Below the pieces are notes generated by a model. That model was given only the letters and a program-made list of their open reading frames with translations, had not been told where the DNA came from and did not search any database. Positions 6,695 through 51,000 of a DNA stretch of 64,000 nucleotides are shown here, piece by piece. Numbering within the stretch: the stretch's first letter is position 1; every line of letters starts with the position of its first letter. A program made the translations under genes and the position numbers. Origin of the DNA: a virus (taxonomy: Duplodnaviria > Caudoviricetes); the IMG/VR virus record IMGVR_UViG_3300035520_000781, positions 1 through 64,000 of that record, one strand, 5' to 3'.

Positions 6695-6747
6695 TCTCTG
6701 GTTTGGTAACTCACATTGTGATGGTAGTTCGATTCTACCTCAGAGAA
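6695..6747 (+). ncRNA. tRNA-like mini-RNA (acceptor + T-arm, no D-arm or anticodon loop)
   Basis: TCTCTGG/TCAGAGA; GGTAG-TTCGATT-CTACC; internal TCAC-ATT-GTGA. Confidence 0.55.
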
Positions 6748-6800
6748 CTATGCTCAAATGGACAGGCATAATTGTCCTATAATCTAAGTCATTAAACAAA

Positions 6801-20284: not shown

Positions 20285-20340
20285 TATAAAATTAATAGAT
20301 TATGAAATAGCTAAAGTGTTTTTGTAATTAACATATAAAT

Positions 20341-20412
20341 GCTCTCATAGTTAAAAGGATATAACATTTCCCTCCTAAGGAAAAATTCCCGGTTCGAGTC
20401 TGGGTGGGAGTA
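20341..20412 (+). tRNA. tRNA-Arg(CCT)
   Basis: TTTCC-CTCCTAA-GGAAA; CCCGG-TTCGAGT-CTGGG. Confidence 0.93.
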
Positions 20413-20442
20413 CTAAATAAACTTAACTAACAATACTAAACA

Positions 20443-20766
20443 ATGTCACATTCAAGAATCAGATGGACTAGTGAAGAAGATGCAATCTTAGTCCAGGCAG
20501 TAAAAGCTAATCTTCACAACAGAGCACAGGCATTTAGAGAGGCTGAAACAAGACTTCCTCTAAGAACTGCATTGGCTTGTCAATTTAGATGGTATGATGT
20601 TTTAGGTAATCCTAAGCATGAGAAGTATGTAGGTTGTTTGTTTACTTTGGTAGGACAAGCAACTAAACTTGATAACAGAAGTTGTTATAAAGAGCATTAT
20701 TCTGTTGCTCCAAATAAAGTTAAAAGAGGTATTTGGAGTAAGATTAAGAAACTATTAGGACTGTAA
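20443..20766 (+). CDS. Myb/SANT-like (RsfA-like) DNA-binding protein
   Basis: RWTSEEDAILVQAV...RTALACQFRWY. Confidence 0.75.
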   Translation: MSHSRIRWTSEEDAILVQAVKANLHNRAQAFREAETRLPLRTALACQFRWYDVLGNPKHEKYVGCLFTLVGQATKLDNRSCYKEHYSVAPNKVKRGIWSKIKKLLGL

Positions 20767-20860
20767 ATAGTGATTAGTGTAAGTGATATAACTCCTCAGG
20801 ATATTCTACCAAAGAATATTCTTGAGGAGTTTATTATTAAACCTGTAATAGTAAGTAAAA

Positions 20861-21073
20861 ATGAAAGTATCAGAACTAATAAACATACTATACAAAGTTA
20901 ATGGTAATGCAGAAGTTAGATTTGGAACTAATGCAGCACCAGAGAAAGAAGTAACTTTAGTACTTGAGACAACATCTTATAATGAAAATGCCTCTTATGA
21001 TAAAAAGAAAGTAGGAGCTATTCTGCCAGAATACATAGTGTATTTAAATAGAATAGACCTCCTTACTAAATAA
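20861..21073 (+). CDS. hypothetical protein
   Basis: MKVSELINIL-type phage ORF. Confidence 0.7.
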   Translation: MKVSELINILYKVNGNAEVRFGTNAAPEKEVTLVLETTSYNENASYDKKKVGAILPEYIVYLNRIDLLTK

Positions 21074-21088
21074 ACATGTGTTGAAAAA

Positions 21089-21149
21089 GAGATGATAAGT
21101 TTGGATGCCATTAAATTGGTTGTAGGTTCGACTCCTACATCATCTCCCA
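21089..21149 (+). ncRNA. tRNA-like mini-RNA with CCA
   Basis: GAGATGAT/ATCATCTC-CCA; GTAGG-TTCGACT-CCTAC. Confidence 0.6.
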
Positions 21150-21190
21150 TATGTGCCATTATGTTGTTATTTAACCTCCTTTGTGAGGAT

Positions 21191-21249
21191 TGGGTAGAAA
21201 GGTTTAAATAGTGATATTTAAGTAGGTTCAATTCCTACCTACCCAACCA
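21191..21249 (+). ncRNA. tRNA-like mini-RNA with CCA
   Basis: TGGGTAG/CTACCCA-A-CCA; TTAAATA-GTGA-TATTTAA; GTAGG-TTCAATT-CCTAC. Confidence 0.65.
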
Positions 21250-21250
21250 T

Positions 21251-21496
21251 AGGATAAACTCAGAGTAGGGTCTCCTGCCCTCCCTTGCAACCCAATAGAC
21301 TTTCATATTCTAGACACTGTAGATTGTGCGGGTTTACTTACAATGAAAGGGTGCGCAAATAATTAGTTGTAAGAGTGGTGATTTATTGATTCTTAGATTC
21401 AACAATCATAGTTGATTAAATGATGTTGTTTGATTTGTACCTTTTGTTGATGTAGAAGATATAATAACCAGGCAGTATTGAGTTTATCCTTTTTTT
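21251..21496 (+). ncRNA. candidate ~240 nt structured RNA
   Basis: Perfect 12 bp terminal inverted repeat AGGATAAACTCA/TGAGTTTATCCT, inner CTGCC/GGCAG, then a T tract. Confidence 0.45.
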
Positions 21497-21519
21497 GAAA
21501 CTATTCTATTTTTAAATAT

Positions 21520-21894
21520 ATGGTAGAACCAAAAGTAAGACTTAGCTTGACAATTCCAGGAGCTGTCATGTTGAGCTCGCAGGACTGCGAAAAAATGTCA
21601 CAAAAAGAAGCCTATGACTATCAAAAACTTGAAGTTATTGATGGGCCAGGTAAAGGTAAAGACAAAGTGAAGAGAGAAACTCTTCATATTTATACAAGAA
21701 AGTCTCGACCTGCTACTCAGAGTATTTCAATTAGTAAAGAAGCATATGATTTTATGCTTGACCATTGGACTACTCCTAAACTTGCAAAGACTTGGAAACT
21801 GATGTCTATAAAACAGAAGTTAGATAGTCATTTTGCTATTATAGCAGCACACTTTAATGCAAGCTCTTTTAGTTACGAAATATTGGAAGATTAG
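21520..21894 (+). CDS. hypothetical protein
   Basis: 124 aa ORF. Confidence 0.75.
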   Translation: MVEPKVRLSLTIPGAVMLSSQDCEKMSQKEAYDYQKLEVIDGPGKGKDKVKRETLHIYTRKSRPATQSISISKEAYDFMLDHWTTPKLAKTWKLMSIKQKLDSHFAIIAAHFNASSFSYEILED

Positions 21895-35084: not shown

Positions 35085-35106
35085 CCCACTTTTAATTTCA
35101 AAAATT

Positions 35107-35388
35107 ATGAAACAAAGTCCATTGCAAAGAATAGAAAGTCTCATCACTACTTTGCCAGGAAAAGATGCTGAATTAGCTAAGAAATACTTTAAAGAAAGAA
35201 ACTTTGAGTATATTCTTGAATTAGTTAAGTCTGATTTATATAAAGCAAATAAAGCAAAGAGGGCACAAAAAGTGATAACAGAAGTAGAGGATTTAGATGA
35301 AAGTATAGCTTCTTTACTATCATTAGAAGAAGAACTAATACTGTATATGTCTTATCTTGATATAGACCTCTCGAACTATGATGATTAA
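35107..35388 (+). CDS. hypothetical protein
   Basis: 93 aa ORF. Confidence 0.7.
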   Translation: MKQSPLQRIESLITTLPGKDAELAKKYFKERNFEYILELVKSDLYKANKAKRAQKVITEVEDLDESIASLLSLEEELILYMSYLDIDLSNYDD

Positions 35389-35390
35389 TT

Positions 35391-36425
35391 ATGAGAAAGA
35401 GTTTAAAAGAAATATCTTGGTTAGTAACAGAACTAGAGTATAGACAAGACCCCGCACTATCTTACTCTACATTAGCTAAATTTGAAAGAGAGGGGTTTGG
35501 AAGTCTTGATAAATTATTTGATAGAGTAGACACTCCTTCATTACAGTTTGGAAGTCTTGTAGATACTTTAATGACAGGTACTCAAGAAGAATTTGATGAG
35601 CACTTTATGGTGGCTCAATTAGATAATAGTTTGTCTGATACTCTTATTACTATCACTAAAACTCTCTTTGAAAAGTGGAATACTGTTTATTCATCTGTTA
35701 CAGATATTCCTGATGATTATCTTATTGAAACTATAAGTGAAATTCAGTGGAATAATCATTGGCAAGCTAAAACAAGAGCAAAGAAAATTAAAGAAGATTG
35801 CTCGGGATATTATAAATTACTTTATTTGTCAAGAGGTAAAACTATTATAGATACATTCACCTATCAAGATGCTTTAAATTGTGTAGATAAACTTAAATCT
35901 GCTCCATCAACAAGATTTTATTTTGAACAAGATAATGTCTTTGATGATAGTATTGAAAGACTATATCAATTGAAGTTTAAAGCTACTTTTGATAATGTAG
36001 ATTATAGATGTATGGCAGACCTTTTGGTTGTACTACATGACAAGAAAGTTATAGTTCCAGTTGATTTAAAGACTAGTTATAAACAAGAATATGACTTCTA
36101 TAAAAGCTTTGTAGAGTGGAGATATGATATACAAGCCAGACTTTATTGGAATATTATAAGAGCTAATTTAGACAAAGATGATTATTTTAAAGACTTTAAA
36201 CTTGCAGATTATAGGTTTATAGTTATTAATAGAAAGTCTTTAAATCCACTTGTTTGGAACTTTGACAAGACACAAAGTTTAGAAGAAATTACTACAAAGA
36301 ATAATACAATATTGAGGCATCCTTTTGAAATAGGAAAGCAGCTAAAAAGGTATCTTGAAGAAAAACCAGTAGTGCCTGATGGAATAGAACTAATTAAACC
36401 CAATGAAATAAGTGATAAGATATGA
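35391..36425 (+). CDS. PD-(D/E)XK exonuclease (RecE/ExoVIII-like)
   Basis: LSYSTL, FGSLVD, ADLL..VDLKT, YDIQARLY. Confidence 0.85.
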   Translation: MRKSLKEISWLVTELEYRQDPALSYSTLAKFEREGFGSLDKLFDRVDTPSLQFGSLVDTLMTGTQEEFDEHFMVAQLDNSLSDTLITITKTLFEKWNTVYSSVTDIPDDYLIETISEIQWNNHWQAKTRAKKIKEDCSGYYKLLYLSRGKTIIDTFTYQDALNCVDKLKSAPSTRFYFEQDNVFDDSIERLYQLKFKATFDNVDYRCMADLLVVLHDKKVIVPVDLKTSYKQEYDFYKSFVEWRYDIQARLYWNIIRANLDKDDYFKDFKLADYRFIVINRKSLNPLVWNFDKTQSLEEITTKNNTILRHPFEIGKQLKRYLEEKPVVPDGIELIKPNEISDKI

Positions 36426-40260: not shown

Positions 40261-42320
40261 TGAGTCAAATATATTTAGTTACTGAGCAATCACAGTTATT
40301 TGATAATAATAATTATAAAATTATTGGTGTGGAGGAGTCTTTAGAGCTCCTCTCACCTTTAACTGTGGTTGGCCTTGATACTGAAACTGAAGGTTTAGAC
40401 CCATATACTAAGAACCTTTTATCAGTTCAACTTGGATGTAATGATTTTCAAATTGTAATAGACTGCTCTACTATAAATATTCAACAATATAAGGAATATC
40501 TTGAGTCAGATAGGCTATTTATAGGGTGGAATTTAAAGTTTGATTTAAAGTTTTTATTTCATAAAAGAATAGTACCAAAAAGAGTTTATGATGGATTTCT
40601 TGCTGAAAAATTAATGTGGCTTGGCTACCCTGCTGGATTTCATTCTATGTCTCTAAAAACAGCTGGAGAAACTTATTGTAATATTGAGCTTGATAAATCT
40701 GTAAGAGGTCTAATTATATGGAAAGGATTAATTTCTGAAGTAATAGAGTATGCTGCATTAGATGTTAAATATCTTGAAGAAATAATGAATAAGCAGCTAA
40801 TAGAACTTAATAAAAAGGGTTTAAATGTTGCTATTGATTATGAGAATAGATTTGTCCTTCCTCTTTCTTATATGGAATATTGTGGTGTAAAACTTGATGT
40901 TGAAAAATGGAAAGTTAAAATGCTACATGATAAAGAACGAGAGGAATTAGCAAAAAATGCTTGTAATAAATGGTTTATTTCTAATATAACTCAGGATAAA
41001 TTTAAAGAGCTGTATAATAAGTATATTTTTGTAAATCTTCAAGGAGATTTATTTGAAGGTTTCAATACAGAGCCTCAAGTAAAATTAAATTGGAATAGTG
41101 CTAAACAGGTTGCTGAAATATTTAAAGCTTTTGGAGTTGATGTAGTTATAGAGGATAAAACAACAGGAAAAGGTAAAGACAGTATTGATGCAAAACAATT
41201 GAAGCCTCAGAAAGATAAATGTAGTTTAATTCCACTATATCTTGAATATAAAGAAGCTGTAAAAGTGACATCTACTTATGGTGAAAACTTTTTAAAACAG
41301 ATAAATTGTAAAGGTAGAATATGTACTAATTACTCTCAATTAGGTGCAGATACTACAAGAATAACTTCAGGAGGAAAAGACAAGACTTCTCATACTGATT
41401 ATTTAAATTTACTTAATCTTCCTGGTAATCCAGAAACAAGAGAATGTTTTTGTGCTGAAAACGGAAATAAATGGATAAGCATAGATTATTCAGGACAAGA
41501 AACTTATTTAATGGCATCCATAGCAGATGATAAGGCTATTATTAATGAACTCACAGAAGGCTCTGGAGATATTCATAGTTTAACAGCATACATAGCTTAT
41601 CCTGAAATTCCAAGAGATACAAAAATTAAGGACATTAAAAAGCTATATCACAACTACAGACAAGAGGCCAAAGGGATAGAGTTCGCAATTAATTATGGAG
41701 GAACAGCTGATACTATAAGTAGAAATAAAGGAATCCCTATAGAAGAAGCTACTACTATCTATAATAATTATATGAAAGGATTTACTGGACTAAAAAAATA
41801 TCAAGATTTTAGAAGAAAAGATTGGCTTAATAAAGGCTATATTCTCCTGAGTCATTTAACCGGACACAAAGCTTATATTTATGATTTTGACGAATTAAAA
41901 ACTATTCAATCTAAATTCAACAATGAAGGTTTTTGGAGTTATTATAGAGAAATGAAAGCTTCTTGTCCTGATTGTGAAACAGTACAAAATGTAAGAAAGT
42001 TTTTTAAAAGAAAGTCTGCATCTGAGAAACAAAGTATTAACTACCCAATACAAGCAGCTGGCTCAATGTGTCTAAGAGTAAGCATGATAAACTTCTTTGA
42101 GTATTTAAGGAAAAATAACTTATTATTTAAAGTATTAATTTGTGTTGCCCCTTATGACGAAATAAATTGTGAAGCTCCAGCAGAAATAGCAGAAGATATA
42201 GCAAAAGTATTATATAATTGTATGGTAAAAGCAGGCTCTTATTTCTGTACAAAATGTAAATTAGATGCAGAAGTTTCCAGAGCAAAAGATGGTACTTTAC
42301 CTACATTTTGGATTCATTAA
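40260..42320 (+). CDS. polA: DNA polymerase family A
   Basis: Exo LDTET/NLKFD/YAALD; DYSGQE, RQEAKGIEFAINYG, YDE. Confidence 0.96.
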   Translation: MSQIYLVTEQSQLFDNNNYKIIGVEESLELLSPLTVVGLDTETEGLDPYTKNLLSVQLGCNDFQIVIDCSTINIQQYKEYLESDRLFIGWNLKFDLKFLFHKRIVPKRVYDGFLAEKLMWLGYPAGFHSMSLKTAGETYCNIELDKSVRGLIIWKGLISEVIEYAALDVKYLEEIMNKQLIELNKKGLNVAIDYENRFVLPLSYMEYCGVKLDVEKWKVKMLHDKEREELAKNACNKWFISNITQDKFKELYNKYIFVNLQGDLFEGFNTEPQVKLNWNSAKQVAEIFKAFGVDVVIEDKTTGKGKDSIDAKQLKPQKDKCSLIPLYLEYKEAVKVTSTYGENFLKQINCKGRICTNYSQLGADTTRITSGGKDKTSHTDYLNLLNLPGNPETRECFCAENGNKWISIDYSGQETYLMASIADDKAIINELTEGSGDIHSLTAYIAYPEIPRDTKIKDIKKLYHNYRQEAKGIEFAINYGGTADTISRNKGIPIEEATTIYNNYMKGFTGLKKYQDFRRKDWLNKGYILLSHLTGHKAYIYDFDELKTIQSKFNNEGFWSYYREMKASCPDCETVQNVRKFFKRKSASEKQSINYPIQAAGSMCLRVSMINFFEYLRKNNLLFKVLICVAPYDEINCEAPAEIAEDIAKVLYNCMVKAGSYFCTKCKLDAEVSRAKDGTLPTFWIH

Positions 42321-48000: not shown

Positions 48001-51000
48001 CTTTCATGAGGGCAATTGCCTATAATGAAGGTATAAAAATAGTAGGAGAAAATGCCAGTGTAGAAGATATAATTAATGCTGGCAAGAAAACATGGGTATA
48101 TAAAAAATATAAGAGTTGTAGTCTTACTGATGGCCAAGGTTATAGAACTTTAGAATCATACAGAAAGGTTCTTGGAATGGCAGGAAAGTGGACACAAGAA
48201 ATGGAAAATGTCTATGACGAAATAATGACTCTCCGAGAAAAATATGGTAAAAGAGTGCCAAAAGAAGGAGATGCAGATTTCAAAGATTATATGTCAAGGC
48301 TTGCTTCTATTTCTAGTAAGGCAGTTGTATTTCAGCCAATAAAGCCTTATATGTTTACTCATGAAATATTCACTATAAATTCAGGGGATGCTAATACAGC
48401 TCCTGATAAGATGCTAATTCCTGTACAGCATAAATATGCAGAAGCTGTCCTTATCCCTGAGTTACTCCCCGAGGATAGTAGACTTAGAGATATGGCATAT
48501 TGGATGGATGAACATGTTGAGACTGACCCTACAACAGGTAAATCAAAGAAATCTCCTATTGACTTGGTATGTGCTTCTACAGTAGTCAAAGTTGGTGGTT
48601 TTGGTGCTGCTAAAATACATGATGCTACAACATCAGAAGAATTTACTGCAGCATTAGAAGGTGGCTATGTTCATCAATTAGACTATGAAGATTATAGAAT
48701 CCAAACTAATGTTCCTGAGCATATTAATGGCTCTCAGTTGTTTGGAACTCAGGTGAGAAAATTAATAATGTCTCGTCTTAATCTTACAGGAACTAAAACT
48801 TATAATTATCTTAAAAATTTAAGAAAGTCCCCACAAACTGTTAATCTTGGTGGGAAATGGAAAAAGGTAAATGCTCAAGAACTTAATGGTAGAAATCTTC
48901 TTGCTCTTTACAATAGTTTAATTGTTTCTAATATAGTAGATAGCTATGAAGAGTTTGAAAGAGAAATTGGTAATATAGACAATCTTGCAGATAAATTATT
49001 ACAATCTGTTCTTTCTAATAGCAGAGAGTCAATGGATAATCTACTGTCATACTCTGTTACTGGAGATGCTAAATTCTTAATGCCAATATTTGAAGGAGCA
49101 TTAGAGCATGATTCTGCTGCATTACTTCTTAGTATATTCAAAAAGAAGGTTAATAAACAAGCAATTAAAGGAGGTTCTGCTGTTCAGGTAAGTGCCTTTG
49201 GTATTACTGCCAAAAAGACTAGTGGAGACCTTGAATATGTTCTTGACCCTAATAATAAAAATAATATTTTATACTGTGAATGTGAGATACCATTTAATTT
49301 AAATTATTATGACGTCGCATCTAAAAGAACTGTTTCATTAGACTATGATGACTATTGTGAGCAGAATGGAGAATTAAAAGTAGGTAAATTTCTTGAAGAA
49401 GATGACCCTGAATATAATAGGTATCTTAGTTATGTAAAAGATGGTAAAGTATATAAGCCTAAAATTGAAATAGATTATCCTGATATACTTAGTCTTATTG
49501 CATATAGAATTCCTACTGAAAGAGCATACTCAATGATTAATCTCAAGGTTAAAAGATTTAGTAGACCTACTGCTGGTGGAACTATTAAAGTTCCCAGTGA
49601 AGGTACTACTATTGCAGGTTTTGACTTTGATATTGATAAGCTCTATTTCATGAGAAGGGAGTATAGAAAACATACTATTAATTCTCAATATGATGAGGCA
49701 TATTTTAATAAAGAAGACAGAGCTTATATATTTGAAAGAATTTATACAGAACATCCTGAAATTCAAAAGGCACTTAATTTAGAAAGAAGTAAGCATCCTT
49801 TTAGTAATGCACCACTTCATTCCTATTGGAAAGATGCAAGAATTGAAGAAAGATTTGGATATTCTAAGAATGAACTCTTTGAATATATAGCTAAAGAGGA
49901 TGATATTGAACCTGAAACTGTTGTATCTGATGATGCTCAAGAGTATTTTGAAGATTATGACTTTGATAAAACTCCCGAGCAGAATTCAAGAGCTGCTAGA
50001 AATAATCTACTTATAGATTTAATGCAAGCTAGGCTGAGTGACCCTGAGACATTTTCAGAAAGATATACTCCAGGTGGATTTGAGAATGCAAGAAAGGCTG
50101 CTAGAAAAATAAGAGAGCTTATTTTTGGAAAGCTTGATGGTCTAAAGGGTTCTGGTGTAATGGCAGAACTTGAAAGGAGATATAATGATAAGTCTGTTGA
50201 AGACCCTGAGCCTAATTATGACCCTACTGACCCTATGACCATTATTAACTATAATCAGCAAAATCAAGTAGCAGGGAAACTTATTGGTATATTTGCAAAT
50301 CAAAATACCAATCATGCCTTTGCTTCTTCAATGAGCAAATTTGTAGTTAAACCTAATTCTCTTATAGAATTTGCAGGTCATACTTTTAAAGAAGAAGGAG
50401 TGGGAGGAGATTTTCTTAATGCTCCTCATAGAAAGGATGGTCAAAATGATGTAGACCTTTATATTGCAGAACTTCTTGCAGCCTCAGTAGATGCTGTAAA
50501 AGACCCTGTTCTTAACTTCTTGAATCTTAATATTTATACTGCAGATACTGGTGCTACTCTAATGAGACTTGGCTATACTGCAGAAGAAGTTGGGTTACTC
50601 TTTAATCAACCTGTAATTAAACAATTATGTGATAGATGTGCTAATGAAAATTCAAATATTAATAAAGAAATAGATGCTTTAGTTAATCATCTTGAAGGTA
50701 TTGTTGGCCCAAATAAAGTATCTGTAGATTTAAGTACTGAATTTTTAGCAAACACTATTATAGAAAATAGAGAAGCTTTAGCAAATGGAGATACTGGATA
50801 TGTAGACAAACATGCAGCTGAACAATTAGCTGTATTAAAGATGTTTGAAAAAGCATTGAAAGTAGCCAATGATGTTTCTTTATTTATCACTAATACTAAA
50901 TTCACTGCTTCTAATGCTGTTGGCTCTACATTTGGAGAAATGTATGCCCAGCAATTAAGAGTAAATGATTATGTTGCTAAATTTGTACAAGATAAGAATA

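Follow-up and report, generated by a model that had tools for sequence, protein, structure and literature searches.

A crAss-like gut phage, represented by an IMG/VR virus record of 92,997 nt, carries two tandem tRNA-like units in which the D and anticodon arms of a tRNA are replaced by an insert of 24-25 nt, and a third unit of the same plan is found elsewhere in the genome. These units would most likely serve as handles for the tRNA-trimming enzymes of the host or as small stable tRNA look-alikes. Coordinates are those of the window, i.e. the whole 64,000-nt stretch of DNA that was analysed (positions 1 to 64,000 of the record), unless a relative is named. The units and their surroundings are the following:

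6695..6750, plus strand, third mini unit of the same plan (genome-wide structure scan)
20861..21073, plus strand, 70-aa ORF, likely the upstream cistron (ORF list)
21089..21149, plus strand, mini tRNA-like unit 1 (sequence, fold, pattern scan, Rfam tRNA model)
21150..21189, plus strand, 40-nt spacer between units 1 and 2, with a weak 4-bp hairpin only (z = -0.5)
21190..21249, plus strand, mini tRNA-like unit 2 (sequence, fold, pattern scan)
21252..21497, plus strand, ORF-free stretch of ~240 nt (fold z = -2.3)
21520..21894, plus strand, 124-aa gene conserved in relatives (synteny anchor)

The replication proteins of this phage are closest to those of crAss001-like phages (Steigviridae). Its helicase-like protein is 66% identical to that of cr116_1 and 57% identical to that of IAS virus, and its DNA polymerase shares 74% identity with the IAS virus counterpart; protein identity to the nearest relatives is 47-74% only. 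The genome contains 13 ordinary tRNA genes. The tRNA at 2829-2902, called by Rfam only, has the tail A-CTA. No tRNA-His gene was found by ARAGORN in a scan of the whole genome; several relatives have one. No tmRNA was detected in the genome, ARAGORN being among the tools used, and searches for TROVE/Ro60, SmpB, a CCA-adding enzyme, RtcB, RNA ligase and an integrase each returned nothing.

Anatomy and setting of the mini units

Unit 1 starts with G-1 at 21089, which pairs with C73 at 21146 and extends the 7-bp helix between the 5' (21090-21096) and 3' (21139-21145) acceptor strands to 8 bp, with CCA at 21147-21149. Its 25-nt insert (21097-21121) consists of a 10-nt GG-bearing linker, a 4-bp hairpin with a 6-nt loop and one further nucleotide, and is followed by the T-stem (21122-21126 / 21134-21138) carrying the T-loop TTCGACT. 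In unit 2, T at 21190 is paired with A73 at 21246 (T-1:A73), the 7-bp acceptor is formed by 21191-21197 and 21239-21245, and the 24-nt insert holds a 6-nt GG-bearing linker and a 7-bp hairpin capped by GTGA (21204-21221). The T-arm of this unit lies at 21222-21238, with the T-loop TTCAATT, and its CCA at 21247-21249. In both units the 5-bp T-stem is stacked directly on the 3' acceptor strand, and the canonical T-arm features are present (T54, T55, C56, R57, A58 and the G53-C61 pair). The original prediction had described two ~60-nt units with a perfect acceptor, a canonical T-arm and an encoded CCA, each with a short linker and one hairpin, with an 8-bp acceptor including G-1:C73 in the first and a GUGA tetraloop in the second; sequence and MFE folds agree with this description throughout.

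Unit 3 has a 7-bp acceptor with one G.U pair, a canonical T-arm and A73, without CCA, and its 21-nt insert is composed of a GG linker and a 4-bp hairpin. It is located in an intergenic gap, directly after one copy of a repeated motif of the early region. One genome thus contains three copies of the reduced plan, whose inserts of 25, 24 and 21 nt all comprise a GG linker and a hairpin. Since a stub hairpin stands in place of the D and anticodon arms, all three units are unable to decode.

The MFE folds match the drawn structures, with energies of -17.8 kcal/mol (unit 1) and -18.1 kcal/mol (unit 2) and z-scores of -2.5 and -3.2, respectively, against 200 shuffles. A pattern composed of a T-arm, 8 nt and CCA has two occurrences in the window, whereas 100 shuffles yielded none. 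Across the three units, each of the 53 stem pairs is intact, a single one being G.U, and the G+C content of the region is highest over units 1 and 2. CCA is encoded in only one of the 13 ordinary tRNA genes, so its presence in units 1 and 2 is not background. Both -1:73 pairs together would be expected by chance about once in 10 cases, and G-1:C73 alone about once in 16.

Positions 21096-21103, inside unit 1, correspond to a Bacteroides-type -7 promoter box (TAAGTTTG) without a clear -33 element. A string related to this box, G-TTT-RR, is found after the 5' acceptor strand of each of the three mini units.

The stop of the 70-aa ORF is located 15 nt 5' of unit 1, and a consensus scan detected no terminator-like site between this ORF and the units. 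The spacer between units 1 and 2 contains the 8-mer TGCCATTA, which is repeated inside unit 1. The ORF-free stretch begins 2 nt past the CCA of unit 2. An 11-bp terminal helix closes it, with a T7 run behind; the stretch is likely the downstream RNA of the same transcript as units 1 and 2. This stretch gave no Rfam match, and no similarity to it was found in relatives. The sequence ACTTACAA, a mark of the tRNA arrays of relatives (see below), occurs in it once, at chance level for the window. With tRNA-like folds at cistron borders, the placement of the units resembles that of t-elements.

The region might also contain no RNA element, and correspond to a small protein gene or to a DNA site such as attP. 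Two small ORFs do overlap the units, one of 39 aa (21092-21211, plus strand) and one of 78 aa (20995-21231, minus strand), but neither matches a PHROG phage protein family, and the tRNA-like features are far beyond chance, so that we give this explanation next to no credence. An integration site was rejected, as the genome lacks an integrase.

Comparison with known tRNA-like RNAs

Units 1 and 2 share with tRNA (RF00005) the 7-bp acceptor and a T-arm with a T-psi-C loop. They were rejected as canonical tRNAs, having neither a D-arm nor a 7-nt anticodon loop (their hairpin loops are of 4 and 6 nt). The Rfam tRNA model scored 22.8 bits on unit 1, against a threshold of 29, with E = 0.068 and an alignment restricted to the acceptor and T-arm; at E <= 10, the model did not match unit 2 on its own strand, and ARAGORN called neither unit. 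A permuted or two-piece reading of units 1 and 2 was also rejected, no complementary 5' strand being present within 15 nt downstream.

By analogy, the units would work most like the t-elements of plant mitochondria or the tRNA-like domain of tmRNA. The latter has in common with them the acceptor, the T-arm and CCA; it also has a stemless GG-bearing analogue of the D-loop and a short helix where the anticodon arm would be. The GG of tRNA and tmRNA docks on the T-loop, forming the elbow. All three units carry a GG linker and a stub hairpin, which may correspond to this D-loop analogue and this helix. The linker that follows the 5' acceptor strand in the tmRNA of one relative (L013), ATCTGGTAT, resembles the linkers of units 1 and 3, whereas the acceptor sequences of the units are unrelated to the tmRNA of relatives. 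In jakobid mitochondria, tmRNAs are reduced to the tRNA-like domain (PMC3590771; Rfam mt-tmRNA). A tmRNA remnant was nevertheless rejected: no tmRNA-clan match was obtained at E <= 10 in 20300-21700, ARAGORN made no call, SmpB is absent, and the G3:U70 pair of tmRNA, which confers alanine identity, is missing (A3-T70 in unit 1, G3-C70 in unit 2). The tmRNAs of relatives were detected with the same tools.

Plant mitochondrial t-elements are non-decoding tRNA-like structures within transcripts, where cutting by RNase P and/or RNase Z generates the termini of adjacent RNAs (PMC1920247). Like the phage units, they are of ~60 nt, do not decode and are located at cistron borders within a longer transcript. 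They differ in having a cloverleaf-like body, no encoded CCA and mapped cleavage, whereas the phage units have a single stub hairpin for the D and anticodon arms, an encoded CCA, predicted cleavage sites and a bacterial host. The mascRNA at the 3' end of MALAT1 is a second example of a tRNA-like processing mark. RNAs C and D of phage T4, small non-decoding RNAs in or beside a phage tRNA cluster as are the units, are about twice as long. They are produced from the T4 tRNA region and their role is unknown (PMC3014915). YrlA-type Y RNAs are tRNA mimics with a T-arm and an acceptor-like stem (PMC4201824), but unlike the units they are permuted (T-arm, closed acceptor, D-arm), have a Ro-binding stem and lack a free CCA. 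This class (RF02553) was rejected for the units, which gave no YrlA match, have open acceptor ends and no D-arm, and lie in a genome without a TROVE gene. No description of such mini units in phages was found in the literature searched.

RNase P, CCA-end enzymes and several synthetases read a tRNA at its acceptor/T helix and 3' CCA (PMC4033280, PMC9976931). In the work of Francklyn and Schimmel, a 13-bp minihelix with G-1:C73 is charged in vitro by bacterial HisRS (PMC9976931), in agreement with the earlier statement that G-1:C73 is the His identity element. Unit 1 shows the sequence features of a His minihelix, namely G-1:C73, an acceptor/T helix of 13 bp (8-bp acceptor and 5-bp T-stem) and a 3' CCA; unit 2 does not. 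The known His minihelices are laboratory constructs; unit 1 differs from them by an additional linker and hairpin, and in acceptor sequence it is not related to the tRNA-His genes that related phages carry.

These features could be explained if the units were stand-alone small RNAs in need of their CCA end, either as chargeable minihelices or as decoys or competitors for factors that read the acceptor end or the elbow. HisRS (for unit 1), tRNA-directed toxins, CCA-adding or repair enzymes and EF-Tu would be candidate targets. Several observations point in this direction: units 1 and 2 encode a CCA that is rare in the tRNA genes of the phage; G-1:C73 on a 13-bp helix makes a HisRS substrate (PMC9976931); tRNA-His is lacking here and present in several relatives; and the architecture is comparable to the tRNA-like domain of tmRNA with a short closing helix, with a tmRNA upstream of the corresponding slot in some relatives and none in this genome. 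However, G-1:C73 has the chance frequency given above, unit 2 contains no known minihelix identity set, neither unit has G3:U70, and unit 3 ends without CCA. Moreover, the phage encodes no SmpB, CCA-adding enzyme, RtcB or RNA ligase, and no defence target is known. We consider such a role rather unlikely, and keep it because the encoded CCA fits a released RNA at least as well as pure punctuation.

The slot upstream of the 124-aa gene in relatives

Seven IMG/VR loci were retrieved with a profile of the homologues of the 124-aa gene, and seven relatives were scanned whole, namely the genomes behind five of these loci, cr116_1 and IAS virus. In the coordinates of relatives, L-numbers designate loci and G-numbers genomes. 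Metagenomic homologues of the 124-aa gene comprise 25 at 46-59% identity and one at 98%. In relatives, tRNA or tRNA-like genes are always found upstream of this gene; in four relatives, unusual tRNA genes are densely arrayed there. From one relative to another the slot is hypervariable, and it is a hot spot for tRNA-derived genes, which include:

L012 2025-2150 and 2288-2400; L014 2005-2118 and 2255-2378; L015 2855-2965: permuted tRNAs
L014 2135-2258 and 2383-2522; L015 2499-2609 and 2727-2853; L018 2606-2731; L012 2405-2526: normal-order tRNAs with a hairpin insertion
L013 1694-2089: one-piece tmRNA (Rfam, 69.5 bits)
L011 981-1124 and 1236-1377; L010 1388-1529 and 1544-1684: tRNA-like RNAs of crAss001 and cr112_1

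The circularly permuted tRNA genes belong to three related crAss-like genomes. Leader, T-arm, 3' acceptor strand, discriminator and CC or CCA come first and are followed, after 1-7 nt, by the 5' acceptor strand, the D-arm, a canonical anticodon arm and a trailer. Once un-permuted in silico, the five permuted tRNAs were identified by ARAGORN as Phe-GAA, Thr-TGT, Cys-GCA, Thr-TGT and Asp-GTC. The permuted tRNA genes listed in a 2014 review come from algae and one archaeon only (PMC4033280), and no report of such genes in phages was found in the literature searched. In the normal-order tRNAs, hairpins of 45-70 nt are inserted in the D-loop or on the anticodon side. Permuted and hairpin-inserted tRNAs have in common a helix-bulge-helix motif around ACTTACAAWA, which flanks the former and is part of the insertion in the latter. 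As it is rarely seen outside the arrays, the motif suggests a dedicated signal for processing. The genomes with arrays were found to encode no phage RtcB or RNA ligase. Some array tRNAs have anticodon loops of 8 or 12 nt (L012 1757-1832 and 2553-2627; L014 1900-1980), and for two of these ARAGORN reported the four-base anticodons TTCT and TTGG.

One-piece tmRNAs are present in three relatives (L013 and the G001 and G003 genomes), a few hundred bases upstream of the slot. The L013 tmRNA, missed by ARAGORN, is located between a split tRNA and a Myb-like gene. At L013 860-1500, the halves of a tRNA are ~570 nt apart, with an encoded CCA at the end, and the stretch between them contains a complete tRNA-Arg(TCT) and an HNH-type ORF. 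In crAss001 and cr112_1, an ORF-free stretch of 0.8-0.9 kb lies downstream of a TROVE/Ro60-like gene (gp96) and contains the tRNA-like RNAs listed above and the repeated motif ACTTACTTCAA. According to the Rfam alignment, the first RNA of each phage has an insert of 72-82 nt at the anticodon position; the body of the second is ~106-107 nt long. These are candidate phage Y-like RNAs.

Two further elements of tRNA length, at G002 48203-48282 (the same in G003) and on the minus strand at G005 92515-92590, combine a perfect acceptor and T-arm with a non-cloverleaf body, and neither was called by ARAGORN. The T-arm sequence of the G005 element is that of unit 2.

A covariation search across related phages had been suggested with the original prediction and yielded no orthologue of the units in relatives, IMG/VR or JGI metagenomes. 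Mini units were absent from whole-genome scans of the seven related genomes and from the loci reached through three flanking proteins, and a blastn search of 50,697 phage records gave nothing except an ordinary tRNA. Acceptor-specific patterns had no match in IMG/VR, and a single false positive, an ordinary tRNA-Ile, in JGI metagenomes. Among the matches listed for the generic T-arm and CCA pattern in IMG/VR, most were ordinary tRNAs of unrelated phages and two or three were short-bodied oddities. As no orthologue was found, covariation and conservation provide no evidence for the units, and this absence is the main weakness of any functional claim. Elements that combine a short non-canonical body with the same T-arm and an encoded CCA were seen in unrelated IMG/VR phages, near L180 12649 (minus strand) and at L092 7880-7936; the former also has G-1:C73.

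The units carry traces of their origin. The acceptor stem of unit 2 and the next two bases are identical to those of tRNA-Asn of the relative G001, and its T-stem is that of the phage's own tRNA-Asn. The part of unit 1 that runs from the stub hairpin through the T-arm to the 3' acceptor strand is 80.6% identical over 36 nt (E = 4e-4) to the permuted tRNA-Phe of a relative, the match covering the leader/T-arm/acceptor part of that gene. Unit 1 also resembles the permuted tRNA-Asp, CCA being followed by T in both. These identities and likenesses indicate that the units are derived from tRNAs.

Such an origin is what would be expected of recent functionless relics. Ordinary or permuted tRNA genes of the slot would have been stripped of the D and anticodon arms through deletion or template switching and would not yet have decayed. 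The units occur in this genome only, the slot of relatives harbours full tRNA genes and undergoes turnover, and the resemblances of unit 2 to tRNA-Asn and of unit 1 to permuted tRNAs fit this scenario. However, it requires three independent events, each with a flawless helix, a GG linker and a newly formed, perfect hairpin as its outcome. For a 7-bp hairpin under a GTGA cap, which is of the GNRA type, the estimated chance in this composition is ~0.002, CCA is found in both units at 21 kb, and the 53 stem pairs contain no mismatch. We hold relics to be an unlikely explanation. Full tRNAs in related phages, together with simple uncompensated deletions here and the lack of a discrete RNA, had been named at the outset as the finding that would speak against the original prediction; the slot of related phages does contain full, though odd, tRNAs, but the units are not simple uncompensated deletions, given their intact pairs and designed-looking stub hairpins.

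Candidate functions and the link to the DNA polymerase gene

Our best reading, put forward tentatively, is that the units may be selected mimics of the tRNA top half, cut out by RNase P and also punctuating the transcript. They would be transcribed jointly with the 70-aa ORF upstream and the 240-nt stretch downstream, and be recognised by host RNase P. As position -1 is paired with 73, as in tRNA-His, the cut would probably fall between -2 and -1. Each unit would be released as a stable RNA of ~60 nt, CCA-ended for units 1 and 2, and the cuts would divide the transcript into an upstream message, the units and a downstream RNA. The perfect stems, the canonical T-loops, the absence of the pattern from shuffles and the threefold repetition of the plan argue for this, as do the integrity of every stem pair despite diverged relatives, the CCA of units 1 and 2 and the high G+C content. 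The tight placement between an ORF stop and a structured stretch and the lack of a protein family for the overlapping ORFs are consistent with it, and precedents exist in t-elements (PMC1920247) and the T4 small RNAs (PMC3014915).

Other observations count against selected top-half mimics. No orthologue was found, and a hypervariable slot fits turnover as well as function. A pure cutting signal does not need an encoded CCA. After a cut 15 nt past the stop, the upstream mRNA would lack a protective 3' hairpin, and the -7 box TAAGTTTG, if active, would start transcripts inside unit 1. An encoded CCA is an anti-determinant for RNase Z, which argues against this enzyme as the 3' cutter. Of what was proposed initially, all the anatomy required for recognition by RNase P is present, as is the CCA end, and RNase Z is disfavoured. 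The proposal of processing punctuation is supported by the placement, 15 nt past the ORF stop and 2 nt before the 240-nt stretch.

If made and processed, the units would be a case of a bacterial virus employing the top half of a tRNA, stripped of the rest, as an RNA part, whether for punctuation with the help of host tRNA-maturation enzymes or as a small CCA-ended mimic. A device of plant mitochondria and of mammalian long non-coding RNAs would then extend to phages, and the units would offer a compact natural substrate on which the minimal needs of Bacteroidales RNase P, CCA-end enzymes and HisRS could be studied. Of greater importance may be the wider context, as the slot upstream of the 124-aa gene keeps yielding new tRNA-derived genes across the lineage, including minis, permuted tRNAs, hairpin-interrupted tRNAs, tmRNA and Ro-associated mimics.

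A segment of another phage gene is related to unit 1:

41501..41534, plus strand, segment of the family A DNA polymerase gene (complement and identity to unit 1)

Positions 41506-41520 are the exact 15-nt complement of 21101-21115 in unit 1, and 19 of 20 positions are paired over 41501-41520. A 15-nt complement was reached in 1 of 300 shuffled genomes; after correction for the ~8 query/orientation combinations that were tried, the 15-mer by itself has a chance of a few per cent. Four nt downstream of the complement, 41525-41534 is identical to the 5' acceptor strand of unit 1 followed by AAG, a 10-mer found at two sites only in 92,997 nt. Cofolding is favourable (~-13 kcal/mol), and the duplex energy has a genome-wide z of -2.8. 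The target site, from our own reading of the peptide, is presumably near motif A. Units 2 and 3 show no such complement or identity to the polymerase gene, and no parallel polymerase link was found in relatives.

The link may represent filler DNA left by the rearrangement in which unit 1 arose. A 15-nt inverse copy together with a 10-nt identity is like filler at a rearrangement junction, which adds to the case for functionless relics. It may also point to an antisense or guide function, with unit 1 as a tRNA-scaffolded RNA directed against the phage DNA polymerase mRNA. The linker and stub hairpin would pair with 41501-41520 and the mRNA at 41525-41531 with the 3' acceptor strand of unit 1, so that the mRNA would be presented to RNase P as by an external guide sequence. 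The rarity of the exact complement in shuffles, the two-site 10-mer, the cofolding energy and the nature of the target, a family A DNA polymerase, favour a guide. However, correction for the combinations tried leaves the chance stated above, the duplex z is -2.8 only, and the relation is restricted to unit 1 and to this phage. In addition, the pairing segments are in the opposite order to those of engineered external guides, pairing would occupy the leader bound by the RNase P protein, and the 5' strand of unit 1 would compete in cis. A guide RNA of this kind is, in our opinion, highly improbable. At its boldest, the idea is that unit 1 would anneal to the polymerase mRNA and swap acceptor strands, the mRNA being presented to RNase P or masked as a timed post-transcriptional control of replication; a milder form would make the units non-decoding amino-acid carriers, with histidine on unit 1. 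We regard these speculations as very unlikely.

In two relatives, the DNA polymerase gene contains an interruption of ~0.9 kb, located differently in each (cr116_1 35096-36009 and G005 65070-65960), and these interruptions are probably introns.
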